Positions 2,889 through 64,000 of a stretch of DNA of 64,000 nucleotides are shown here, one piece after another. The notes beneath the pieces were generated by a model. That model saw only the letters and a program-made list of their open reading frames with translations, did not search any database and was not told the DNA's origin. Position numbers and translations under genes: made by a program. The stretch is from Eubacterium sp. (GTDB lineage: Bacteria > Bacillota > Clostridia > Lachnospirales > Lachnospiraceae). The stretch is from the NCBI GenBank assembly GCA_024681515.1, contig JAILAR010000026.1, forward strand, positions 8,799 through 72,798, read 5' to 3'. Position 1 is the stretch's first letter; every line of letters begins with the position of its first letter.

Positions 2889-3392
2889 ATGTATTCGGTT
2901 ATGAATACATCATACAAGAGAATAATGCGTAGAAGTGATAGGGAAATAAAGGACGAGAGATTAATTGAAGCATTTATTGCAAAAGAACAGGTCATGAGAA
3001 TCGCATTCTATGACAATGGTGAGATTTATATCGTTCCAATAAACTATGGATATACAAATGAGTCGGGGAAGTATAGATTCTATTTCCATGGTGCAAAAGC
3101 CGGACGCAAGTATGAACTCTGCAAGAATTCACCGGAAATTGGATTTGAAATAGATGGGAACTATGAACTGTTGGAAGCTGATATCGCATGTGCTTTTTCG
3201 GCTAAATTTCAGAGTGTCATCGGTACGGGCAAGATATGTATCGTAGAAGATAAGCAGGAAAAGATCAGAGGGCTTAATATTCTGATGAAGCAGGTATCCG
3301 GTAGTCCTGAATGGCAGTATTCTGAGAAAATGATAAATGCTGTTGCTGTTTATAGGGTAGATGTTGATAAGCTTTCATGCAAAGCGAAATAG
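2889..3392 (+). CDS. pyridoxamine 5'-phosphate oxidase-family (FMN-binding split-barrel) protein
   Basis: MRRSDREIKDERLIEAFI...MRIAFYDNGEIYIVPINYGY is typical of this family. The start is ambiguous: ATG 2889 follows AAAGGAAAAG, and the family-typical MRRSDREI start is at 2925. Confidence 0.75.
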   Translation: MYSVMNTSYKRIMRRSDREIKDERLIEAFIAKEQVMRIAFYDNGEIYIVPINYGYTNESGKYRFYFHGAKAGRKYELCKNSPEIGFEIDGNYELLEADIACAFSAKFQSVIGTGKICIVEDKQEKIRGLNILMKQVSGSPEWQYSEKMINAVAVYRVDVDKLSCKAK

Positions 3393-20324: not shown

Positions 20325-20412
20325 CTAAAACGGAAGTGTAAAGCAAACAGACGCCAAATACGTGCGAAGCGATGATCTACGGAGCGCATAAGCGCGAAGT
20401 ATGGAATGGAGG
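20325..20412 (+). repeat. intergenic repeat, copy E1
   Basis: CTAAAACGGAAGTGTAAAGC...ACGGAGCGCATAAGCGCGAAGTATGGAATGGAGG. It aligns with 47580-47669, and the final 21 nt are identical and provide the SD sequence. Confidence 0.75.
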
Positions 20413-20417
20413 ATAAC

Positions 20418-21545
20418 ATGGAGAAGTCTGCGGTTTATTTTACGGATTTCAGAACAAGGATCGGTGTCAGTCAGTGTACGAAGCTGCAGAAGCTGATCCG
20501 CGCAGCAGGGATCGGGGATATAGACTTTAAGGGCAAATTCACCGCGATCAAGATGCATTTCGGAGAACTGGGGAACTGCGCATATATCCGCCCGAATTAT
20601 GTTCATGCAGTTGCGGATGTGATCCGTAAGCTTGGAGGGATCCCTTTCCTGACGGATTGCAATACGCTTTATCCCGGCAGCCGCAGTAATGCGGTGGATC
20701 ATTTGAAATGTGCCGAGATCAACGGATTTAATTCGGTAACCACCGGCTGTCAGGTCATTATCGGGGACGGACTCAGAGGCAACGATGATGTGGAGGTTCC
20801 CGTACATAACGGCGAATACTGCAAGACGGCGCTGATCGGTCGGACCATTATGGATGCGGATATCCTGATCTCACTTTCACATTTTAAGGGGCATGAGGAT
20901 GTGGGCTTCGGCGGTGCACTGAAGAATATCGGTATGGGCTGCGGCAGCCGTCCCGGGAAAATGAAAATGCACGCAGAGGGTACTCCTGAGGTGGACCAAA
21001 AGGTGTGCCGCAGCTGCAGGCAGTGCGCAAAGGTCTGCGGAAGCAATGCCATATCCTATGGTGAGGACGGTAAGGCCTATATCGATCCGGATCTATGTAA
21101 GGGATGCGGCCGCTGCATCGGCGCCTGCAATTTTGAAGCCATTGAAAGCCTGTATGACTCCGCAAATGAGATCCTCTGCTGTAAGATCGCCGAGTATACT
21201 CAGGCGGTCTGCTACGGCCGGCCCTGCTTCCATATCAGCCTGATCATGGATGTGTCTCCGAACTGCGACTGTCATGATGAAAATGATGCGCCGATCCTGC
21301 CGAATATCGGTATGCTGGCGTCCTTTGATCCTGTGGCGCTGGATCAGGCCTGTGCGGATCTGTGTCAGAAGGCGGAGCCGATCCGCAACAGTCAGCTGGG
21401 TGATCATCTGGCCAGACCGAACTGGAAGCTTCACCATGATCATTTCATGGATAACAACCCCAATGTCCGTTGGAAAGAAGCTCTGGAACACGGAGAAAAG
21501 ATAGGACTCGGTACTCGGGAGTACGAGCTTAAGGTGATCCGTTGA
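20418..21545 (+). CDS. DUF362 domain protein with 4Fe-4S dicluster domain
   Basis: MEKSAVYFTDFR...IKMHFGELGN...FLTDCNTLY is DUF362-like. Cluster motifs: CRSCRQCAKVC and CKGCGRCIGAC. ATG 20418 lies 5 nt after GGAGG. Confidence 0.8.
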   Translation: MEKSAVYFTDFRTRIGVSQCTKLQKLIRAAGIGDIDFKGKFTAIKMHFGELGNCAYIRPNYVHAVADVIRKLGGIPFLTDCNTLYPGSRSNAVDHLKCAEINGFNSVTTGCQVIIGDGLRGNDDVEVPVHNGEYCKTALIGRTIMDADILISLSHFKGHEDVGFGGALKNIGMGCGSRPGKMKMHAEGTPEVDQKVCRSCRQCAKVCGSNAISYGEDGKAYIDPDLCKGCGRCIGACNFEAIESLYDSANEILCCKIAEYTQAVCYGRPCFHISLIMDVSPNCDCHDENDAPILPNIGMLASFDPVALDQACADLCQKAEPIRNSQLGDHLARPNWKLHHDHFMDNNPNVRWKEALEHGEKIGLGTREYELKVIR

Positions 21546-23370: not shown

Positions 23371-23480
23371 ATGGATAAATTTGATATAAGTAGTTTAAAA
23401 GATTCTTTTTATGATGAAGGTCAGGAGAGCACAGGCCGGATTGCCACCGAAGAGGAACAGCAGGCAATCCTTGCCAGCAT
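23371..23480 (+). other. probable true 5' end of the NRPS gene, out of frame with the main ORF
   Basis: ATG 23371 lies 8 nt after AAGGAG. MDKFDISSLKDSFYDEGQESTGRIATEEEQQAILAS aligns with the inter-module linkers (SEEDKEAIRKLHDT, SEEDEIKILSMHDT). The homology continues in the main frame as HDTAFPVAERPAY, which implies a 1-nt loss near 23477-23479. Confidence 0.55.
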
Positions 23481-23495
23481 GACACCGCATTTCCT

Positions 23496-26400
23496 GTGGC
23501 TGAGCGTCCGGCATACCGTCTTCTGCAGGACAGTGCGGAAAAATATCCCGATAAAACAGCGCTCATTGCCATCGACCGGACACTCACTTACAGAAAGCTG
23601 AATGCTGAGGCAAATGCCGCATCGCATGTGCTGCGACGCTTCGGAGCAGGACCGGAAACCATCGTTGCGGTCTTGGCTGACAGGGACAGCTACGCCTATG
23701 TGATGCGGGAAGGGGTTCTTAAGAGCGGCGGTGCTTTTATGCCGGTTGATCCGGAGTATCCGGAGGAACGGATCCGCTATATCCTGGACGATTCAAAGGC
23801 AAAGCTGCTGATTACCACAGGTAATGTCATTGAACGCAGAAATGAGCTGATCACGGCGCTGCAGGCGGAAGGTATCGTTATCATTAACGTACAGGATGCC
23901 GTAAGCCTGACGGACACAGGAGCGCTCGATGAGAACGGGAAACCAAAGACCGGTTATGTACTTCCGGGTGAGAGAGAAAATCTCAACGTGGAAGTGCCCT
24001 ATGATGCGCTGGCCTATGTGATCTATACCTCAGGTTCCACAGGAAAACCGAAGGGTGTGATGATCACCAACAAGAATCTGGTGAACTTTGCCGACAGAAA
24101 TGAGAAGAATCTCGAGATTCTTGCATTCACGGAAAATGTTGAAGTCACCATATCCATAGCCGCGTTTACCTTCGATGTCTCCGTTATGGAGGAGTTTGTG
24201 CCTTTTGCTCATGGCATGACGAATGTGCTTGCAACATGGAAACAGATGATGGATCCGGCGGAAATGTGCGGGCTCATGGTGAACAACCATGTCGGGTCGA
24301 TCACATGTACCCCCAGCTATATCATGAATATGATCGAGATCCCGGCTTTTGTGCCTGCAATACAGGGATTAAAGTGCATTGATGTGGGATCGGAACCGTT
24401 CCCGCCGGTACTTTTCGACAAACTAAAGGCAATTAATCCGGATCTCCTTATCGTGAATTCCTACGGACCGACAGAGTGTACCGTCAGCTGTACGCTGAAG
24501 AAGGTTGTTGATCCGAGAGACGTAACCATTGGCGTTCCTCTGGCAAATGTGCACGTGGCCACCATGGATCCGGATGGACATCTGCAGCCCATCGGAGAAA
24601 AAGGTGAGTTGGTCATCATGGGGGACGGCGTCGGTCGGGGATATATCGGAAGAGAAGACCTGAATGAGAGGAATTTCATTCGGGTCCTTGGTATACCTGC
24701 TTATCGCAGCGGTGATCTGGTGCGGATCCGGGAGAACGGAGATATCGAATTCCACGGAAGAATGGACGATCAGGTGAAACTCCGAGGACTGCGTATCGAA
24801 CTCGGTGAAGTGGAGAGCGTGATCGGCAGTTATCCTTCCGTTCGGGCCGTTACTGTGATTGTCATCCATGGGGAGACGGATTATTTAGCTGCTTACTTTA
24901 CGGCGGGTGAAGAAGTAGACATATCCGCTTTGAAGGAGCATGCAGCAAAGTATCTTACGGAATATATGGTTCCTCAGGCCTTTATGCAGCTGGAAACCAT
25001 GCCCATGACAGCAAACGGCAAGGTGGATAAAAAGGCATTGCCTGTCATTGAGATCACGGAAGAGGAACTCGTGGCAGCGGAAAATGAAGTGCAGGAAAAG
25101 ATCCTGGCGATTGCGAAGGAAGTGATCGGTACCGACAGGATCGGTATCACCACGGATCTATATATGATGGGGCTTTCCTCCATCGGCTGTATCAGGCTGT
25201 GTTCCCTTTTGTCAGACAGCTTCGGTGTCAGCGTTCGGGTAGCGGAGATCTTCGAATGTCGTACGGCATTAAGCATCGAAGTACTGATCAATGAAAAATC
25301 CGGAGAAGAAAAGATCTCCCATGAACTGAGGGAGAGCTATCCTCTGACGCGGACACAGATGGGAATCTACATTGACAGCGAACTCTACGCCGGAACCACG
25401 GTCTATAATCTTCCGTATCTGTATAAACTGGATCAGAGAGTGGATATGGAGAAACTGCGCTCGGCCCTGCAGAGAACTTTGCTTGCACACCCGTATCTTT
25501 TTATGACCCTTCGGGAGGAAGGCGGAGAGATAAGGGCCGTCAGAGACCTCGGCCTCGGACAGGATGGGTATGCTCTGCCGGAGATCGTGATCTCGGATCG
25601 GGAGCCCATACCGGAAGAACTGGTAAGACCCTTTGATCTGACCTCCGGAGAGAGACTATTCCGGGCAGAGCTTTTTGACACGGAAAGCGGGAAATACCTC
25701 TTTGTTGACATGCATCATATCGTCAGCGACGGTAGTTCTCTGACCATATTCTATCAGGATCTGGATGCGGCTTATCGTGGGGAGTCTGTCCCTGCGGAAG
25801 AATATACAGGCTTTGAAGCGGCGCTGGATGAAGAATACGCGCTGACCACTGACCGTCCTGCAAAGGCTAAAGCCTGGTATGACGGTATCTTTGCCGGATG
25901 TGGCGGAGAGACCCTGCCGGTAAAGGACGGAAGTAAGTCAGACAAAAAGATCGAAAGGATAGAATGTTTCGGCAGCAGCAACGCAGACGCTGTTCGCTTG
26001 TTCTGTAACAGGAGCGGTCTGTCTCTCAATGCCGTCTTCACATCTGCATTTGGCATGGCTTTGCAGGCCTATACCGCATCAGAGCAGGCAATCTTTTCTA
26101 CGATTTATAACGGCAGAAACGATTCCAGAGTGGCCCGCAGTGTCTCCATGTTTGTAAAGACGTTGCCGGTCCGCTTTGCTGCGGATCAGCAGACCTCGGT
26201 TTCGGAAACCATTCGAAACTGCCAGAGTTATCCCCTTTCGGCCATGGCAAATGATATCTACAGCTTTGCGGAGATCAAGAAGGCTTACGGGATCGGTGCT
26301 GATATCCTTTTTGCTTTTCAGGGGGAGTTGGAGGAGTACGAAGAACAGGAACTCTGCGGTTTTCCTGTGATCACAAAGGATCTGTCTCTGTCCCAGGCAA

Positions 26401-29400
26401 AGTCTATGCTTGGGATGGATATCATTCTAAACGGTGATAAGGTGGAATTCAGATGTGAATACATGCCTTCCGTATACTCGGAATACACGATGAAAGGTCT
26501 GATCCGTCTTGTGGATCAGATCATCGGTGAGTTTATCCAAAAGGATAAGATCTCGGAGATCAGTCTTGTTTCCGAGGAAGATAAAGAGGCAATTCGAAAG
26601 CTTCATGATACGGCAGCCGCAGTGGAGGAGCGCCCCGCGTATCGTCTGCTGCAGGACAGTGCGGAAAAAAATCCCGATAAAACAGCGCTCATCGCTATCG
26701 ACCGTACACTTACCTACCGGGAACTGAATGAAGAGGCCAATGCCGTCGGATATGTTCTTCGGGAACATGGATCAGGACCGGAGACCATCGTAGCAGTGAT
26801 GGCAGATCGGGACAGTTACGCGTATGTGATGCGTCAGGGTGTTCTTAAGAGCGGCGGTGCATTTATGCCTGTCGATCCGGAGTATCCGGAGAAACGGATC
26901 CGGTATATTCTGGAGGATTCCGGAGCAAAGCTGCTGATCACCATAGGGCATGTTATTGAACGAAGAAGTAAGCTGTTCGAGGCATTACAATCGGATGGAA
27001 TCACAGTCATTAACGTGGCGGAGGTCATACTTTCCGGAGAACGGGAGAATCTTAACATAGATGTACCCTACGATGCCCTGGCTTACGTGATCTACACTTC
27101 CGGTTCCACGGGTAAGCCCAAGGGCGTGATGCTGACGAATAAAAACCTGGTGAACTTTGCAACTGCCAATGAAAAGAACCGGGAGATCCTGGGATATACG
27201 GAGCGGGGAAGCGTAAGTCTGGCCGTTGCGGCTCTGACCTTCGACTTTGCCATCATGGAGGAATTTGTGCCTCTTGCAAACGGAATGACTGTGGTGCTGG
27301 CAACGAAGGAGCAGATCCTGAACCCGGATCAGCTGACCAATCTTATGGTCGGAAATAAGGTCGATGTCATGAGCTGTACACCTGGATATCTGGCAAATCT
27401 TATGGCTATTGAAAGCTTCCTGCCGGCAGTCAGAGGGCTAAGAAGCGTGGACTTTGGTGCGGAGGCCTTTCCGCCGACACTGTACGGAAAATTGAAGGCA
27501 GTGAATCCGGAGCTTTATATCATGAACGGCTATGGTCCGACAGAGGCTACCATCAGCTGTACCATGGAGGTGATCGATAACGCGGAGGATATCACCATTG
27601 GTATCCCCAACGCCAATGTTCATGTGGCAACGGTAGACCGCAGCGGTCGTTTGCAGCCGCCCGGAGCCATGGGTGAACTGGTGATCATGGGTGACGGTGT
27701 CGGCCGGGGATATATCGGAAGAGAGGATCTGAATGAAAAGAACTTCATTCGGCTGCTTGATATGCCTGCATATCGCAGTGGGGATCTGGTTCGGATTCGT
27801 GAGGACGGAGACATCGAATTCCATGGAAGAATCGACGATCAGGTAAAACTTCGGGGACTTCGGATAGAATTAGGTGAAGTGGAGAGTGTCATCGGATCCT
27901 ATCCGTCGATCCGTACAGCCGTTGTAATTGTCGCTCATGGAGAGACGGATTATCTGGCGGCTTATTTCACCGCGGATGAGAAGGTGGATCTTTCTTCTTT
28001 GAAGGAGCATGCCGCAAAGTATCTTACCGCCTATATGGTGCCTCAGGCCTTTATGCAGCTGGAGGCCATGCCCATGACAGCCAACGGCAAAGTGGATAAA
28101 AAGGCGCTTCCGGCCATGGAATATGAGGAGGAAGAGATATCCCTGCCCGAGAACGAGACACAGGAAAAGCTGCTTCAGATTGCAAAGGAAGTGATCGGCG
28201 CAGACAGGATCGGTGTGGATACAGACCTTTTTGCTGCCGGGCTTTCCTCCCTCAGCTGTATCCGGCTGATCTCGATGGTGAAGGACAGACTCAGGGCTAA
28301 TCTGAATATTGCAGATGTATTTGAAAGCAGAACAGTGCGTCGTATGGAGTCGTTGCTTCCGGACAGAAATGAGGAGGAGATATTTGGACTTCGGAAAGAG
28401 TATCCGTTATCCATGACACAGATCGGTATCTTTGTTGAAAGTATTCGCTACTCAGGCTCAACGGTTTATAATATCCCGTATCTGTACCGGCTGGATCCCG
28501 AAGTGGATATGGAGAAGCTGCAGGCTGCGCTTGTGCAGGCAATTAAGGTTCATCCATATATCAGTATGACTCTTCAGCGGAATGATGCCGGAGATGTCAT
28601 GGCGATGCGTGACGGTGAGAACGATCCGGTGATTTCTGTATCGAATACCATGCCAAAGCAGGATTCACTTGTTCAGCCCTTTGATCTTATGGAGGGCGCA
28701 CCGCTGTACCATATCCGTCTGTTTGATACAACCGACGGAAAGTATATGTTCCTTGATTTCCACCACATCATCATGGATGGAGAATCCTTTGATATCTTCC
28801 TTGAAGATGTAAACAGGTCATATCTCGGAGAAACTTTGGAACCGGAGCGTTACTCAGGCTTCGAGTATGCACTGCATGAAGAGAAAATGCGAGGCTCCAA
28901 AGCGTATGATGCAGCAAGGGATTTCTATGACCGTATATTCTCGGGCTGTGCACCCTGCACACTTCCGGAGAAGGACAGTCGGGGGACAAAGGAGCATAAT
29001 GCGTCCGGAGAAAGAATCGGAAGGGCTGAGGGGGACCGGGTTCGCAGATTCTGCGCTGAACACCACATCTCCGAAAATGCCTTCTTTACCGTGGCATTCG
29101 GACTGGCGCTGAAATCCTATACGGCATCCGAGGAGGCGGTATTTACCACAATCTATAACGGAAGAAATGATGCTCGTCTGGCGGAAAGCGTCGGAATGTA
29201 TGTGAAAACGCTGCCGGTGATGATTCGGGCAGAAGAGGACGAGAAGATATCCGATGTGCTCACCCGCTGCAACGAGTATCTGCTGGGTGCCATGAGTCAT
29301 GATATTTACAGCTTTTCGGAGATCAGTAGCCGCTTCGGGATCCGTTCGGATGTGATCTTTGCATATCAGGGTGACGGTAAAGAAGATAAATCGCCTGAGA

Positions 29401-32400
29401 TTGGCGGACATGCAGCGCAGCAGCTGCAGGAGACGGAGCTCTCTCAGGCAAAAGCTGCCATCGATATGAATGTGTCGCTGAGCGGTGACAAAATTGAATA
29501 TGAATATGAGTATGATCCGGGACTGTTCAGAAGCTATACCGTGGACGGACTGGTGGGAATGATGGACAGCATCGTTTCCGAACTTTTGGTAAGAGAGGAT
29601 CTCAGTGAGTTAAAGCTGGTATCTGAGGAAGATGAGATTAAAATTCTTTCGATGCATGATACCACGGTTCCTGTTGCGGAAAGACCGGCTTACCGTCTGC
29701 TGCAGGACAGCGCAGGAAAGTGTCCGGAAAGGGTGGCGCTGATCGCCGCTGACCGTACCCTGACTTATCGGGAATTGAACGAAGAGGCAAATGCAGTCGG
29801 ATATCTTCTTCGTGAGCATGGAGCAGGACCGGAGACCATAGTTGCGGTGCTTGCCGACCGTGACAGCTATGCCTATGTAATGCGTCAGGGCGTACTGAAG
29901 AGCGGCGGTGCATTTTTGCCTGTCGATCCGGACTATCCGGAGGACCGTATCCGGTTTATCCTGGAGGATTCCGGAGCAAAGCTTCTGATCACCGAGGGAA
30001 ATATCATCGAACGCAGAAGTGAGCTGTTTGAGGCGTTACAGTCGGAAGGTGTTACGGTCATCAATGTGTCCGGGGCTTCCGGAAAGATCGAGGATCTTAA
30101 TGTGGAGGTTCCCTGCGATGCGCTGGCTTACGTGATCTACACCTCAGGTTCCACCGGAAAACCCAAGGGCGTCATGCTGACGAATAAAAACCTGGTGAAT
30201 TTTGCAACCGCAAATGAGAAGAATCGGGAGATCCTGGGATATACGGAGAGGGGAAGTGTGAGTCTTGCCATAGCGGCACTGACCTTTGATTTCGCCATCA
30301 TGGAGGAATTTGTGCCGCTTGCAAACGGTATGACGGTGGTGCTGGCAACGAAAGATCAGATCTTAAACCCGGATCAGCTGACAGATCTTATGATAAAGAA
30401 TAAGGTCGATGTCATGAGCTGTACCCCCGGATATCTGGCCAACCTTATCTCCATGAATTGCTTTATGCCTGCTTTGAAAGGACTGCGAAGTGTGGACTTC
30501 GGAGCCGAGGCATTCCCGCCGACCCTGTACTGGAAGCTGAAGGCTGTGAACAGGGATTTGTATATCATGAACGGTTACGGCCCTACCGAAGCTACCATCA
30601 GCTGTACCATGCAGGTGATCGACAATACGGAGGATATCACTATCGGTATCCCCAACGCCAATGTTCATGTGGCTACGGTAGACAGAGGCGGCAGGCTTCA
30701 GCCTCTCGGAGCCGTGGGTGAGCTGGTGATCCTGGGAGACGGTGTCGGCCGGGGTTATATCGGAAGAGATGATCTGAATGCGAAGAATTTCATTCGTTTA
30801 CTGGATATGCCTGCTTACCGAAGCGGTGACCTGGTTCGGATCCGTGAAGACGGACAGATCGAGTTCCACGGACGGATGGACGATCAGGTGAAGCTGAGGG
30901 GACTTCGTGTGGAACTGGGCGAGGTTGAAAATGCAATCGGAACCTATCCTACGGTCAAATCCGCGGTGGTGATCGTTGTCCATGGTGAGACAGACTATCT
31001 GGCGGCATATTTCACTGCAAATGAGAAGGTGGAGACCGAAGCACTTAGAGCACACATTTCCGAATTCCTTACCGCATATATGGTGCCGCAGGCCTTTATG
31101 CAACTGGATGTCATGCCTATGACAGCCAACGGAAAGATCGATAAAAGGGCGCTGCCGGAGATCCGGAAGGCAGCCGGTTCCGTAAACGTTAAAAAACCGG
31201 AAAATGAGCTTCAGAGAATACTCTGCGAGCTTTATTCCAAGGCACTGGGTATGGAAGTCGGGATCGATGATGATTTCTTTGCCATGGGAGGAACGTCCCT
31301 TACTGCCGCAAAAGTTCTTATGGGAGCAAAGGTGAAGGATCTGCCCATGGAGTACCAGGATATATTCGATGCGAAGACCGTGGAGAACCTGGAAATGATC
31401 CTGCGGGGCAGAATGAAGGAGGATCTGACGGAAACGTCTGAGCAGCAGGAGGACAGTACCGGTGAAGATCCTGAGATCAGAAGGGTGCTTTCCCATAATT
31501 CACGTGAGTATGCAGATGAGATCCGGCAGGAAGGTATAGGAAATGTACTGCTGACCGGAGCTACGGGATTTCTTGGGATCCATGTTCTGAGGGAACTGAT
31601 CGAACATAGCTCCTGCAGGATCACCTGCCTTGTAAACCGAAGGAAGACTGCAAGATCCGAATTTTCACCGGAAAGAAGACTGCATCTCCAGTTATTCTAT
31701 TATTTCAATAATGCATATGATGAACTGTTCGGTGACAGGATCGTGGTGATCGAAAGGAATGTTACGGATGCAGACGGGATCGCAGAGCTTGAAACGGAAG
31801 ATTTTGATACAGTCATTAACTGTGCTGCCATTGTGAAGCATTTTGCGGACTTTAATGAGCTGAAACAGGTAAATGTGGATGCAGTGGAAAACCTGATCCG
31901 GCTTTGTCTCAGGAAGAAAGCCCGGCTTATTCACCTTTCAACCGCATCTGTCAGCGGTGAAGCGATGGATGGCAGAGCGGCGGGAAATGTGCTGACGGAA
32001 GATCGTCTGAACATCGGTCAGGATGTCAGCTCCAACGCTTATGTACACACCAAATATCTTGCGGAAGAAAAAGTGCTGCAGGCCATAGCTACACAGGGGC
32101 TGGATGCAAAGATCATGCGGCTTGGCAATCTGATGAGTCGTGAAGAGGACGGAGAATTCCAGATCAATTTCCGGACGAACAATTTCCTGAATTCGCTCAG
32201 GGCATACGCGGTTCTTGGCTGTTTCCCATATTCAGATATGGATGAACAGGCGGATTTCTCACCGATTGACGAGACCGCCAGGTTTATTGTCGGACTGGCG
32301 GGGACACCCTCCGAATTTACGGTATTCCATGTATATAATTCGCATATGGTGGATATGGGAGATATCCTTACAACGATGGTCTCCTGCGGGATCCACATGA

Positions 32401-47579: not shown

Positions 47580-47669
47580 CTAAAACAGGAAAAGTAAAGC
47601 GAGAAATCGATATATACGCGCTATATGATCCTCACGGAGCGCCGGAAGGCGCGAAGTATGGAATGGAGG
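47580..47669 (+). repeat. intergenic repeat, copy E2
   Basis: CTAAAACAGGAAAAGTAAAGC...ACGGAGCGCCGGAAGGCGCGAAGTATGGAATGGAGG, aligning with E1. Confidence 0.75.
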
Positions 47670-47674
47670 TAGCA

Positions 47675-48469
47675 ATGAGCACAGGCAGAAATATATGTGA
47701 GATCCGGACGGCATATCAGGAGATCACGGAATATCCTCTTATGGATTATGAACGGATGCGGGCAGCTCTGGAACGGCTGATCCTGGAAAACTCCGCAGAT
47801 CCCCGGAAGGGTGTTTTGCAGATCCTGAATCAGGCACGGAAAAAGATCGACTGGCTGGACGGAGAACTGGAACGTGTCCGTATCATGAAACGGTTTGATG
47901 AGGCATATCCGAATGCAGAACTTGTCTGCGGGGTGGATGAAGTGGGACGTGGACCGCTCGCCGGCCCTGTGATGACTGCGGCGGTGATTCTTCCGAAGGG
48001 ATTTGTTGTGCCGCTTCTGAACGACTCCAAGCAGGTGTCCAAAAAGCATCGGGAAGAACTGTATGATGTGATCCTGAATCATGCGGTGGCTGTGGGTGTG
48101 GGCATGAATCCTCCCTCCGTGATCGATTCAAAGGGAATTGAATTTGCAAATAAAGATGCCATGCGTCAGGCTGTCCGGAACCTTTCCGTAAAACCGGATC
48201 TGGTACTGGTAGATGCGGTACACATTCCGGATCTGGGCATTCCGCAGGATTCCATGAACAAAGGCGACACCAAATCCGCTGCCATAGCTGCTGCGAGTAT
48301 CGTGGCAAAGGTGACCCGGGATCGGTTGATGCAGGAATACGATGCGATGTATCCTGAGTACGGATTCAGGGATAATGTGGGGTATGGCAGTCCGGCGCAT
48401 ATTGCTGCCCTGAAACAGTACGGCCCCTGCGAGATCCATCGGAGAGGGTATATTAAAAATATTGTTTAA
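47675..48469 (+). CDS. rnhB: ribonuclease HII
   Basis: VCGVDEVGRGPLAGPV and NDSKQVS. ATG 47675 lies 5 nt after GGAGG. The N-terminal extension is about 70 aa. Confidence 0.9.
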   Translation: MSTGRNICEIRTAYQEITEYPLMDYERMRAALERLILENSADPRKGVLQILNQARKKIDWLDGELERVRIMKRFDEAYPNAELVCGVDEVGRGPLAGPVMTAAVILPKGFVVPLLNDSKQVSKKHREELYDVILNHAVAVGVGMNPPSVIDSKGIEFANKDAMRQAVRNLSVKPDLVLVDAVHIPDLGIPQDSMNKGDTKSAAIAAASIVAKVTRDRLMQEYDAMYPEYGFRDNVGYGSPAHIAALKQYGPCEIHRRGYIKNIV

Positions 48470-60760: not shown

Positions 60761-62339
<1,579 letters not shown>

Positions 62340-62351
62340 CGTAACAAAGTC

Positions 62352-62655
62352 TACGATTCACGATAGAAATAAAGCAAGGCAGTGACGCATGCTTGCATGC
62401 AAGTCCCTGCCTTGCTTTATTTCGTTACGGCGAAGCCGTAGCTGCCCCGATCATTCCGAACGTAAAGCCGCGAAGCGGCGATACATGTCGTGTTCCGACG
62501 TAGTCGGAACACGATCCGAACGAAGTGAGGATGCGCGATGCGTAGCAGCGCCATCTGCGAAGCAGATGCAGGACGTTCGAAGAACGGACTGGCACGGGAC
62601 GTGCCGAAGGCACGGACGGTTCGGAATCGACGAGGGGCAGCTATCGTGAATCGTA
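62352..62655 (+). other. ~300-nt structured intergenic element closed by 15-bp perfect inverted repeats and filled with GAA-triloop hairpins
   Basis: TACGATTCACGATAG (62352-62366) pairs with CTATCGTGAATCGTA (62641-62655). A second closing helix pairs 62442-62461 with 62619-62640. Hairpins lie at 62426-62440, 62467-62479, 62488-62514, 62552-62568, 62574-62586 and 62591-62605, with an alternative at 62601-62613. Confidence 0.7.
62367..62422. terminator. bidirectional terminator hairpin after ilvC (inside the structured element)
   Basis: 16-bp stem AAATAAAGCAAGGCAG / CTGCCTTGCTTTATTT. The loop carries the palindrome CTTGCATGCAAG. Confidence 0.7.
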
Positions 62656-62688
62656 TACAGCGAATGCCTGACCAAATCTCTTTTCCGT

Positions 62689-62717
62689 TTGACATATATT
62701 CCCCGTAAAACTATAAT
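62689..62717 (+). promoter_or_regulatory. consensus sigma-A promoter for the AIM24-family gene
   Basis: TTGACA (62689-62694), exactly 17 nt, TATAAT (62712-62717). Confidence 0.8.
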
Positions 62718-62765: not shown

Positions 62766-63578
62766 ATGATTCAGTACAATAACGTATTCAACAACCCGAA
62801 CATGAAGTGTATCGCACAGGGCGGACAGTATTTCATCTATGAGCATCAGGAAGATATGTCTGTACGTCCCTACGAAGCAGAGACGGCATATTTCATGAAG
62901 GAAATGAATGTAAAGAAACGTCAGGTCCTGGTTCAGCTTAACGGAACGGCAACCAAGATCCAGGCTGGTGCCATGCAGTGGACGGCAGGAAATGTTCAGA
63001 TGCAGACCGGTGTGAGTGGTGTCGGCAATTTCCTCGGAAAGATGGTAAAGGGTGCCGTGACTGGTGAATCCGCTGCCAAGCCCATTTATTCAGGAACCGG
63101 CTATCTGATGTTGGAGCCGACCTTCAATCATCTTCTGATCGAGGACATAGGAAGCTGGGGTCCGGGAGTAGTTCTGGATGATGGTCTGTTCCTTTGCTGC
63201 GATGCAAATATTCAGGAATCCATTACCAAGCGTTCCGGCGTTACCTCTGCCATGTTCGGCGGAGAAGGAATCTTCAATCTCTGCCTGTCCGGTCAGGGAT
63301 ATGCGGTACTGGAACTCCCTGTTCAGCGTGACGAGCTGTTTGAATTTATTCTGCAGGATGATGAACTGAAGATCGACGGAAATATGGCGGTGGCATGGTC
63401 TTCCTCACTGAACTTCACGGTTGAGAAGGCAGCCAAGTCCCTGATGGGTTCCGCTGTATCCGGTGAAGGTTTTGTCAATGTATACCGCGGAACCGGCAAG
63501 GTCCTGATGGCTCCGACACTTCCGGGCGCAGGCCTCAGCAATTTCCACGGACCGGAGCAGACCTCGGCAACAAAATAA
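62766..63578 (+). CDS. AIM24 family (DUF124) protein
   Basis: SD AGGAGGAGAAGG. KRQVLVQLNG...QAGAMQWTAGNVQMQTG...GTGYLMLEP...GEGFVNVYRGTGKVLMAP is typical of AIM24/DUF124. Confidence 0.8.
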   Translation: MIQYNNVFNNPNMKCIAQGGQYFIYEHQEDMSVRPYEAETAYFMKEMNVKKRQVLVQLNGTATKIQAGAMQWTAGNVQMQTGVSGVGNFLGKMVKGAVTGESAAKPIYSGTGYLMLEPTFNHLLIEDIGSWGPGVVLDDGLFLCCDANIQESITKRSGVTSAMFGGEGIFNLCLSGQGYAVLELPVQRDELFEFILQDDELKIDGNMAVAWSSSLNFTVEKAAKSLMGSAVSGEGFVNVYRGTGKVLMAPTLPGAGLSNFHGPEQTSATK

Positions 63579-63580
63579 AA

Positions 63581-63610
63581 CTAAAAGCGTTTCGGCGCGA
63601 AGTATGGAAT
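63581..63610 (+). repeat. intergenic repeat, short copy E3
   Basis: CTAAAAGCGTTTCGGCGCGAAGTATGGAAT shares both ends of E1/E2 but lacks the middle part and the GGAGG. Confidence 0.55.
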
Positions 63611-63620
63611 CAATTATTAT

Positions 63621-64000
63621 ATGAATCATTTAGAAGCGCAATCCTATATCATGCCCTTTATCGAGGGGAAGATGCCGGACTCCAAACGGCTGGAATTTGC
63701 CATGCACATGAAGAACTGCAAAGCCTGTCATGATGAGCTGGAGATCTATTATACGCTGATGACAGGTATGCAGATCCTTCAGGATCCTGAGGCAAGCAGC
63801 GGGAATTTCAGCAAAGATCTGGAAGCAAAGCTGGACAGAACCTTTCATAAGGCAAAAAACCGGCGGGGAATCCGTGTCTCCATGTTTACCATCATCACGA
63901 TCGGGATTGCGCTTATTATGGTATTCTTCTATGGGCGATGCCTGACACTGGTCTATGCCTACGAGCAGGAAACCAAGCAGGAAGCCCAGGGAGAATACTA
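63621..64000 (+). CDS. zf-HC2 (anti-sigma-factor-like) membrane protein; 3' end outside the window
   Basis: Not in the ORF track because there is no stop within the window. MNHLEAQSYIMPFIEGKMPDSKRLEFAMHMKNCKACHDELE carries H-x3-C-x2-C. A TM helix follows (VSMFTIITIGIALIMVFFY). Confidence 0.7.
   Translation, partial: MNHLEAQSYIMPFIEGKMPDSKRLEFAMHMKNCKACHDELEIYYTLMTGMQILQDPEASSGNFSKDLEAKLDRTFHKAKNRRGIRVSMFTIITIGIALIMVFFYGRCLTLVYAYEQETKQEAQGEY

Follow-up and report, generated by a model that had tools for sequence, protein, structure and literature searches.

A probable miniature transposable element downstream of ilvC in Eubacterium sp. and its relation to the Clostridiales-1 RNA motif

Several families of bacterial miniature inverted-repeat transposable elements (MITEs) form stable folds and affect neighbouring genes, among them the Correia elements of Neisseria, the pneumococcal BOX, RUP and SPRITE elements, and bcr1 of Bacillus cereus. 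REP/BIME sequences and REPINs are mobilised by RAYT transposases and recognised as single-stranded DNA (ssDNA); REPs are single imperfect palindromes of 20-40 nt with a conserved GTAG head, and their hairpins can stabilise upstream mRNA or terminate transcription. Here an element is described that lies downstream of ilvC, the gene for ketol-acid reductoisomerase, in 64,000 nt of DNA from Eubacterium sp. (Lachnospiraceae; GenBank assembly GCA_024681515.1, contig JAILAR010000026.1, positions 8,799 to 72,798 of the forward strand). This whole stretch is called the window below. Judged from its sequence, the segment 62349-62658 is probably the insertion of a non-autonomous MITE, or the immobilised relic of one, and would belong, as an enlarged variant, to a modular superfamily of repeats with many copies in Lachnospiraceae; its compact members may be what Rfam lists as the Clostridiales-1 RNA motif (RF01699). 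This interpretation is based on homology to a MITE with target site duplications (TSDs), on copies at unrelated loci, on repeat behaviour across genomes and on modular change of the spacer; the element itself is 310 nt long and non-coding, with terminal inverted repeats matching in 17 of 18 positions and palindromes consisting entirely of Watson-Crick pairs.

The Clostridiales-1 motif was rated a probable RNA with covariation by Weinberg et al. in 2010, no function was assigned, and its structure was described as less conserved in remote homologs; their alignment contains an UGCUUGCA apex, loops of the types GA.A, GU.A, GG.A and GNRA, and several copies per genome (PMC2864571). In the literature searched, no paper was found linking this motif to transposition or describing MITEs of Lachnospiraceae. 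DNA mini-hairpins of the types d(GCGNAGC) and d(GCGNNAGC) show extraordinary stability, withstand nucleases and are poorly bound by single-stranded DNA-binding protein (SSB), and the RNA versions are much weaker; the available part of the review by Hirao places natural mini-hairpins, as single structures, at ssDNA priming sites of phages and plasmids and in the ssDNA promoters of phage N4, and an array in a chromosomal repeat is not among the examples given there (PMC13037366).

The element starts 9 nt past the ilvC stop codon and consists of the following parts.

62349..62366, + strand: left terminal inverted repeat GTCTACGATTCACGATAG, 5' arm of the closing helix P1
62367..62422, + strand: long hairpin P2, AAATAAAGCAAGGCAG..CTGCCTTGCTTTATTT, 56 nt, flanked by an A-tract and a U-tract
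62387-62400, + strand: apex of P2, GCATGCTTGCATGC, with the CTTG loop at 62392-62395
62426..62440, + strand: hairpin P3, TACGGC-GAA-GCCGTA, containing the heptamer GCGAAGC
62442..62461, + strand: 5' arm of the long-range helix P4, CTGCCCC..ATTCCGAAC
62467..62479, + strand: hairpin GCCGC-GAA-GCGGC in the conserved context AAAGC..CGAAG..GCGATAC
62488..62514, + strand: hairpin TCGTGTTCCGAC-GTA-GTCGGAACACGA, 12 bp
62533..62551, + strand: hairpin GCGC-GA-TGC-GTA-GCA-GCGC, in RNA and DNA folds
62552..62568, + strand: hairpin CATCTGC-GAA-GCAGATG
62574..62586, + strand: hairpin CGTTC-GAA-GAACG
62591..62614, + strand: overlapping alternatives GGCACG-GGA-CGTGCC and CGTGCC-GAA-GGCACG
62619..62640, + strand: 3' arm of the long-range helix P4, GTTCGGAAT..GGGGCAG
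62641..62658, + strand: right terminal inverted repeat CTATCGTGAATCGTATAC, 3' arm of P1

A first-pass annotation of this DNA had described terminal repeats of 15 bp, TACGATTCACGATAG (62352-62366) being the exact reverse complement of 62641-62655, and a second long-range helix between 62442-62461 and 62619-62640. Both are present as described, the terminal repeat being 3 nt longer outward on each side: over its 18 nt, 62349-62366 and 62641-62658 (GTATACGATTCACGATAG) are complementary in 17 positions. The left end holds the family motif ATTCACG, followed by TAG, and helix P4 encloses six or seven short hairpins. All local hairpins listed in that annotation were detected as well, with the correction that GGCACG-GGA-CGTGCC is closed by a G-C and not by a C-G pair. 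Overlapping reading frames had been regarded there as non-coding, in agreement with scores of -10.2 (62389-62649, + strand) and -11.3 (62417-62695, - strand) versus +108 for ilvC under a codon model derived from the window.

Both strands were folded as RNA and as DNA and compared with shuffled sequences, none of which folded as well. The RNA fold reached -170.6 kcal/mol (z -12.7) for the + strand and -163.0 kcal/mol (z -13.5) for the - strand; with DNA parameters, z was -14.6 and -13.4, respectively. The minimum-energy fold of the + strand contains 118 pairs, all of the Watson-Crick type with no G-U, and 76% of the bases are paired. Watson-Crick pairing in 118 of 118 cases is as expected of DNA palindromes rather than of old RNA genes. 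A count of perfect-stem hairpins (5 bp or more) with a GNA triloop closed by a C-G pair gave six for the + strand of the whole window, every one of them inside the element, and zero for the - strand; among the 81 other perfect triloop hairpins of the window not one is of this type, and the shuffled element gives 0.006 on average. As in the DNA mini-hairpins mentioned above, the exact heptamer GCGAAGC occurs in three hairpins of the element, and the other loops are of the C-GNA-G type. The ornate structure after ilvC is real and far beyond chance.

A sister subfamily was detected by scanning metagenomes with the pattern ATTCACS-N15-40-GCATGCTTGCATG. The scan gave about 40 copies of an element of 189-191 nt, mostly from one rumen-type metagenome and all with different flanks; at least 16 of them are cut by contig ends. 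The complete element is bounded by 17-nt inverted repeats (left GTTACTATTCACGGGTC, right GACCCGTGAATAGTAAC), between which P2, an ACTGC-GAAA-GCAGT hairpin, and a long helix enclosing GCACC-GAA-GGTGC and GCC-GTA-GGC follow each other. For 15 complete copies with distinct flanks, the neighbouring sequences were compared: eight copies show perfect TSDs of 8 bp, two match in 7/8 positions, and five in four or fewer. Because of the 17-nt terminal inverted repeats and the 8-bp TSDs, this sister subfamily is a bona fide MITE. Short forms of 93-95 nt contain only the ends and P2, and a bare pair of ends with nothing between is found in L184 590-640 (GTTGCTATTCACGGGTC-GGC-GACCCGTGAAAGGCAAC). One further copy combines the sister ends and an 8-bp duplication with an unrelated interior; it was obtained by scanning viral contigs with a 14-nt end, a scan in which mostly chance matches were recorded. 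Scanning viral contigs with the 16-nt apex yielded seven matches, all by chance, and blastn of the window element against phage and plasmid collections gave no match.

The left end in the window can be aligned to the termini of TSD-bearing copies (GTTACTATTCACGG) and to those of three further loci, L175, L165 and L035. In L175 and L165, from the metagenome scan, and in L035 and L111, from a genome scan, the parts are arranged in the same order as in the window. L175 begins 4 nt past the gdhA stop codon, L165 is located behind an msmX/ugpC-like ABC-ATPase gene, and L111 overlaps the groEL stop codon; in the closest homologs of the window element, A- and U-tracts lie on either side of the long hairpin. 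Common to L175, L165 and the window element are the ATTCACG end, the long hairpin with GCATGCTTGCATGC apex, a C-GAA-G hairpin and the AAGC..CGAAG..GCG hairpin. When the window element, L175, L165, L035 and three MITE copies were aligned, features that had not been part of the search also matched: a C-GAA(A)-G hairpin after P2, which is homologous to P3 and occupies the equivalent place in L175, L165, L035 and the MITE copies, the string AAGC-NN-CGAAG-NN-GCG-(A/G)(C)ATAC, the next GNA hairpin, represented in the MITE copies by a GTA- or GNA-capped hairpin at the position of 62488..62514, and the complementary 3' end CGTGAAT. In six elements the AAGC..GCG stem is paired throughout (100%); two of its five pairs occur in four and three Watson-Crick types, respectively, and no shuffle attained its covariation score. 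A MITE-like element that also donated the ilvC terminator, the second of three candidates proposed in the first-pass annotation, is therefore favoured, since ends and internal modules are shared with a TSD-bearing family.

Like Correia, BOX, RUP, SPRITE and bcr1 elements, the family is small, non-coding, intergenic and modular, with terminal inverted repeats, many copies, strong folding of the transcript, TSDs (8 bp in the sister subfamily) and occasional service as terminator or promoter. It differs from them by a near-invariant apex on unrelated stems, by GNA and CTTG loops on one strand only, by compensatory stem evolution among young copies and by having no known partner transposase, and the window copy is without a visible TSD. 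Like REP/BIME, it forms mosaic groups of extragenic palindromes shortly behind genes, with strand-specific hairpins. REP/BIME sequences possess neither enclosing inverted repeats nor TSDs, in contrast to the inverted-repeat ends and 8-bp duplications observed here; the 8-bp TSDs and 17-nt inverted-repeat ends of the sister subfamily do not fit REP/BIME or ssDNA elements of the IS200/IS605 type, which move without a TSD, have one subterminal hairpin with a conserved 5' tetranucleotide and lack terminal inverted repeats. Retrons, IS200/IS605, integron attC sites and riboswitches were dropped on anatomy, with no reverse transcriptase or transposase nearby, TSDs in the family and no better Rfam family.

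To see how widely the apex is distributed, one genome per species was scanned with GCATGCTTGCATGYA, revealing at least 120 loci. About half of them (about 59 among the matches listed) belong to Clostridia, nearly all to Lachnospiraceae. In Clostridia the motif caps a long hairpin, the stem of which is wholly different from locus to locus. Among the matches listed, several genomes hold two or three copies, and many matches are located within about 170 nt of a contig end, the signature of repeats that break assemblies. In one subfamily (L064 2604-2868 on the - strand, L070, L080, L086, L091 and L120), the layout is GCGCRTAAGCAGAG - P2 - GACGAGCAACGCGAA - GNA hairpin - TCTGCTTATGC. The members in L064, L070, L080 and L086 start right past the U-tract of a terminator-like hairpin, which is less clear for L091 and L120; in L064 this hairpin is the terminator of a T-box leader, and the gene behind it is taken, by eye, to be trpE. 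A further member (L119 4760-4960, Butyrivibrio sp. WCD3002) is found in the spacer that separates the 3' end of 23S rRNA from a tRNA cluster, its GNA and CTTG loops being antisense to the rRNA operon. In Butyrivibrio hungatei XBD2006 (L067 2393-2867), RNase P RNA measures 475 nt compared to 367 nt in the model; the extra ~110 nt consist of a long hairpin with GGATGCATGCTTGCATGCAAGAC apex, an ACGGC-GAAT-GCCGT hairpin and a second GCUUGC-capped hairpin. From the model positions, this extension is presumed to sit at the tip of helix P12.

The first-pass annotation had recognised no named RNA family in the element, a statement that has to be revised: the RF01699 model aligns, along its full length, to 62358-62493 (+ strand) with 38.0 bits and an E-value of 1.4e-6, which is below its gathering cut-off of 48 bits. 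L175 and L165 score comparably, 40.8 and 39.4 bits. The match appears only in a 1-kb Rfam scan, filters being stricter on longer scans; whole-window scans gave no match with the gathering threshold or in E-value mode, and no family besides Clostridiales-1 was better than E 0.05 in the Rfam scan. Convincing agreement was obtained for the 5' arm of P1, the AG junction, the long P2 with GCUUGC apex and the following CG, the layout in the window being ..CGATAG / AAATAAAG..GCATGCTTGCATGC-AAG..CTTTATTT / CG. For P3 (GAGCA..UGCGA) and P4 (GGAUUGCGGGAG..CGUAGCAAUCC) of the model, no counterparts are present; in the alignment these stems fall, at low posterior probability, on hairpins unrelated to them. 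For the 3' arm of P1, the model spuriously chose GUCGUGU at 62487-62493, the true arm being 62641-62658, 290 nt away.

Accordingly, the element and Clostridiales-1 share P1 followed by AG, a P2 with invariant UGCUUGCA apex, a bulge of 2-3 nt on its 3' side and a subsequent CG, further hairpins with GNA or GNRA caps, and the taxa in which they occur (Lachnospiraceae and other gut Clostridia); the repeat family of the element also resembles the motif in having several copies per genome. They differ in length (about 310 nt versus about 165 nt), in the small GAA hairpin and the long-range helix with its six or seven hairpins that replace the conserved P3 and P4, and in the P2 of the element, which has A/U tracts and sits just past a stop codon. 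Of 18 loci tested, RF01699 was recognised in eight, twice on one contig in two cases, and the other subfamilies were not recognised. When four canonical copies from different organisms (L079 7130-7400, L118, L138, L047) were aligned, similarity extended beyond the Rfam model to the outer right end, about 50 nt past its 3' end (..ATGAGGGGCAAAATACCTTTTGACCCTCATATCAT). This outer right end is an inverted copy of their left ~25 nt; the element is therefore larger than the Rfam model, which includes a part of it only, and has inverted repeats as its boundaries. No TSDs were found at the Rfam boundaries of canonical matches; the true ends are further out, in AT-rich DNA.

Among relatives, the gene order metH-ilvN-ilvC-AIM24-x-polA is maintained. 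For AIM24 of this locus, homologs carry the names Coprococcus, Eubacterium or Lachnospiraceae, and contigs of the same species come from rumen and gut metagenome assemblies. Within the relatives compared, the full element is restricted to one species-level lineage. Strain L144, with 98% identity in AIM24, does not have 62474-62657 (184 nt), the deletion extending from the GCCGC-GAA-GCGGC loop to the right terminus; the 3' two-thirds are thus dispensable in at least one strain. L015/L016 (91%) have retained no more than TAG, a P2-like terminator whose apex is GCATGCTTGCATG, one small hairpin and GCTGCCTCG, in L145-L147 (80%) a degenerate left arm and a terminator with TGCTTACA apex are present, and L020 and L148 (79%) as well as L021-L023 (75%) have ordinary terminators. 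A different insert of ~95 nt, consisting of a GCATGCTTGCATGC hairpin and a ATCGAGTAGGAGGG..CCTCCTACTCGAT hairpin, is carried by L017 (80%) and missing from its sister L020; the second of these hairpins also occurs in L068. As the relatives differ module by module, the spacer appears to evolve by gain and loss of whole hairpin modules. A clean empty site with a single target copy was not found among the orthologous spacers. In the L017 module (2240-2420), the hairpin ATCGAGTAGG(A/G)GG..CC(C/T)CTACTCGAT stands beside the GCATGCTTGCATGC hairpin, and L068, an unrelated Lachnospiraceae contig, contains one full and one partial copy of the ATCGAGTAGGGG hairpin at 3000-3200.

Rapid change of whole spacer modules, perfect stems of unrelated sequence, and a left arm that resembles the spacer of relatives without the element would also be obtained if the palindromes had arisen in place around stable loop nuclei, through template switching or the correction of quasi-palindromes, and were neither mobile nor functional. 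This is highly improbable in view of homologs at the sequence level, with an equal order of parts, at unrelated loci and in other organisms, of the TSDs in the sister family, and of the strong conservation of the element within the species.

Several observations nevertheless weigh against a MITE insertion after ilvC. The flanks of the window copy, GTAACAAA and AGCGAATG, do not match at any register tried, so that no TSD is visible. A second copy was not found in the 64-kb window, either with the end motif and the apex or with a repeat finder. In the fetched loci, no pair of ends spaced 0.4-5 kb apart with a duplication was present that could mark an autonomous partner; short end motifs used as queries gave only noise, longer ones additional MITE copies and the bare end pair, and no transposase. 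A DDE_Tnp_1 reading frame in L184 was rejected as partner transposase, since it belongs to a different, unrelated insertion sequence. The left-arm sequence (AAAGTCTACGA..) is also found in relatives without the remainder of the element, which suggests that the insertion is old or that the left end is partly ancestral spacer. In a second lineage of the same species (L001, L003-L007), all members of which share 44 synonymous differences in AIM24, the element has 0-2 changes per 304 nt; the flanks differ by 5.4% in AIM24 (all synonymous), 7.3% in the 110-nt 3' spacer and up to 5.2% in ilvC. This near-invariance, effectively one pairwise comparison, speaks for purifying selection on, or homogenisation of, the whole element and not P2 alone. 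Together with the absence of G-U pairs and the compensatory pattern in the family, it fits poorly to a purely selfish relic; these misfits could reflect selection on the fold, homogenisation from other copies or a short recombination tract.

The compensatory pattern became apparent in the 15 full-length copies of the sister MITE, in which 80 consensus pairs gave 1200 pair cells. The consensus pair was found in 1137 cells, a compensated Watson-Crick pair in 22 (15 distinct states), G-U in 15 (9 states), A-C in eight (3 states), another mismatch in 16 (9 states) and a gap in two (1 state). Paired columns show 0.53 substitutions per column compared to 1.4 in unpaired columns. The excess of G-U (G-T in DNA) over A-C is a weak trend, based on 12 states. 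An earlier statistic on wobble pairs in apex hairpins, based on RNAfold, was noisy and without strand bias (98 vs 90) and was replaced by this analysis. Because of the compensatory changes and the slower paired columns, the fold of the loop-bearing strand is under selection even in the sister MITE, which moves as DNA; a purely selfish cut-and-paste element needs no such fold. The compensatory and G-U patterns cannot separate RNA from ssDNA.

Selection for the fold could be explained by a dedicated structured RNA, either an enlarged form of the Clostridiales-1 sRNA or a domain of the ilvC 3' untranslated region, whose likeness to mobile repeats would be secondary and which might block 3' exonucleases, provide a scaffold for proteins or act as an insulator before the AIM24 promoter. 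The sub-threshold RF01699 match with correct P1, AG, P2 and CG features and the probable-RNA rating with covariation (PMC2864571) are consistent with this explanation. It also agrees with the location of every loop on the ilvC sense strand, the near-invariant element between flanks differing by 5-7% in the two lineages, the 9:3 ratio of G-U to A-C states and the 2.7-fold slower paired columns in the sister family, and the toleration of the same hairpin vocabulary at the P12 tip of RNase P RNA. CUUG and GNRA loops are classic RNA caps. Orientation is non-random and varies with the subfamily: 26 of 37 Clostridia apex loci among the matches listed are co-oriented with the upstream gene according to crude gene calls from a codon model, and the window-type copies checked (L175, L165, L111, L035 and the window) are all located just downstream of a co-oriented gene. 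Young MITE copies, on the other hand, are co-oriented with the downstream gene, the upstream gene being opposite in 22 cases and in the same direction in seven. Both orientations are represented in the family, with one member antisense in an rRNA-tRNA spacer, and the TSDs document its spread as DNA. Furthermore, about 230 nt of structure, including both 3' closing arms, are preceded by the strong terminator-like P2 and would be transcribed only by read-through, since no internal promoter is present. The loss of 184 nt in a 98%-related strain and the lack of any G-U among 118 pairs also do not fit, and C-G-closed GNA triloops, which are of marked stability in DNA, have far less of it in RNA (PMC13037366). 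The novel structured RNA considered in the first-pass annotation is weakened by the missing internal promoter, the terminator-like hairpin upstream and the 184-nt loss, and is judged quite improbable.

Loop chemistry leans towards a DNA fold. The hairpin cluster might act as ssDNA, with the RNA fold as a by-product: once exposed, C-GNA-G and G-CTTG-C mini-hairpins would fold at once and exclude SSB, and jointly with the pair of closing helices would draw the ends of the element close to each other, which could serve transposition or excision or create a site for priming or protein recognition. The three GCGAAGC heptamers, the restriction of GNA loops to one strand, the perfectly Watson-Crick stems and the deletion in L144 ending exactly at the terminus are in line with this possibility, as is the stability of d(GCGNAGC) and d(GCGNNAGC) relative to their RNA versions (PMC13037366). 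By GC skew, the + strand of the window has the sequence of the leading strand and is hence the template of the lagging strand, so that co-transcription with ilvC and exposure of the lagging-strand template are confounded here. Strand-specific selection of the fold in a MITE family moving as DNA points in the same direction. No direct observation supports an ssDNA role, however, and nearest-neighbour folding does not separate the strands. DDE transposases, for which TSDs of 8 bp and ends with inverted repeats are typical, work on double-stranded ends, and no requirement for internal hairpins is known for them. An excess of G-T over A-C is expected for RNA too, and at least one member is antisense to an rRNA operon and would be on the other replication strand if the operon is co-directional with replication. 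An ssDNA hairpin cluster, the third candidate of the first-pass annotation, is thus favoured by loop chemistry and strand-specific fold selection and neither shown nor refuted; it appears rather unlikely.

For the ilvC locus, the following features bear on a terminator function.

61318..62339, + strand: coding sequence of ilvC (ketol-acid reductoisomerase; open reading frame, with Pfam KARI_N and KARI_C on orthologous genes)
62689..62717, + strand: sigma-70-type promoter of the AIM24-family gene (62766-63578), outside the element and conserved in orthologous spacers

P2 lies 27 nt past the ilvC stop codon and has an outer stem of 16 bp and a TTTATTT tail (TTTATTTCGT); a terminator scanner reported the inner stem 62399-62415 with the tail. 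A G+C-containing stem-loop followed by a U-tract, just after the stop codon and on the ilvC strand, fits the form of an intrinsic terminator. Because of the flanking A- and U-tracts and the position a few bases past the stop codon, P2 is a probable bidirectional intrinsic terminator of ilvC. The same type of arrangement is seen in L175, with a T8 tail, and L015 is alike. The next gene's own consensus promoter, placed at 62689-62717 by the first-pass annotation, matches in 12/12 consensus positions, and no promoter-like site was found inside the element.

If the element is a MITE, the superfamily would be characterised by terminal inverted repeats pairing as P1, by a P2 with an almost invariant GCATGCTTGCATGC apex, and by a variable number of C-GNA-G or C-GNNA-G hairpins with all loops on one strand. 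A transposase provided in trans would recognise the ends and insert the element with an 8-bp target duplication, as seen in the sister subfamily and assumed for the window copy. P2 would then terminate the upstream gene, here ilvC, as suggested by its sequence features and by the homologs after gdhA, the ABC-ATPase gene and groEL, and its usefulness as a terminator would explain why the ilvC copy was retained. The other ~230 nt, made up of P3, the long-range helix and six or seven hairpins with GNA caps, may represent family cargo growing and shrinking by whole hairpins; the relevant folded molecule could be ssDNA or read-through RNA.

As a more tentative proposal, which may well not hold, the Clostridiales-1 'sRNA' and its larger relatives could constitute one MITE superfamily whose spread or retention depends on the fold of C-GNA-G and G-CTTG-C mini-hairpins in one DNA strand. 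Such a dependence would account for compensatory evolution in young copies, for loops on one strand and for an invariant apex despite stem turnover. The modules would then have been co-opted repeatedly: ilvC, gdhA and groEL would have gained terminators, a T-box leader inserts on its downstream side, and RNase P RNA an extension of P12. A DNA transposon keeping a covarying, one-strand-specific set of mini-hairpins would be unusual for bacterial MITEs. The MITE interpretation also offers a likely identity for an Rfam motif that has been without function since 2010. As its larger relatives behave as TSD-bearing transposable DNA, annotations of 'Clostridiales-1 RNA' in gut genomes may mark mobile repeats and not sRNA genes. 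Such repeats may supply terminators of core metabolic genes in Lachnospiraceae, and the family would explain contig breaks in gut and rumen assemblies.

Two other repeats were noticed in the window. A motif of ~38 nt, a small hairpin followed by GCGCGAAGTATGGAAT(GGAGG), is located directly before three unrelated start codons (20383-20420, 47640-47677 and 63586-63623), and a similar string, GGCGAAGTAT, occurs within the L111 element. By eye, the genes behind this motif are taken to be a Cys-rich reading frame of 379 aa (putative Fe-S protein), a putative RNase HII and a putative anti-sigma factor of the zf-HC2 type. At about 23400-31200, three tandem modules of ~3.05 kb are 63-87% identical to each other and, again by eye, presumably correspond to adenylation/condensation modules of the nonribosomal peptide synthetase (NRPS) type.

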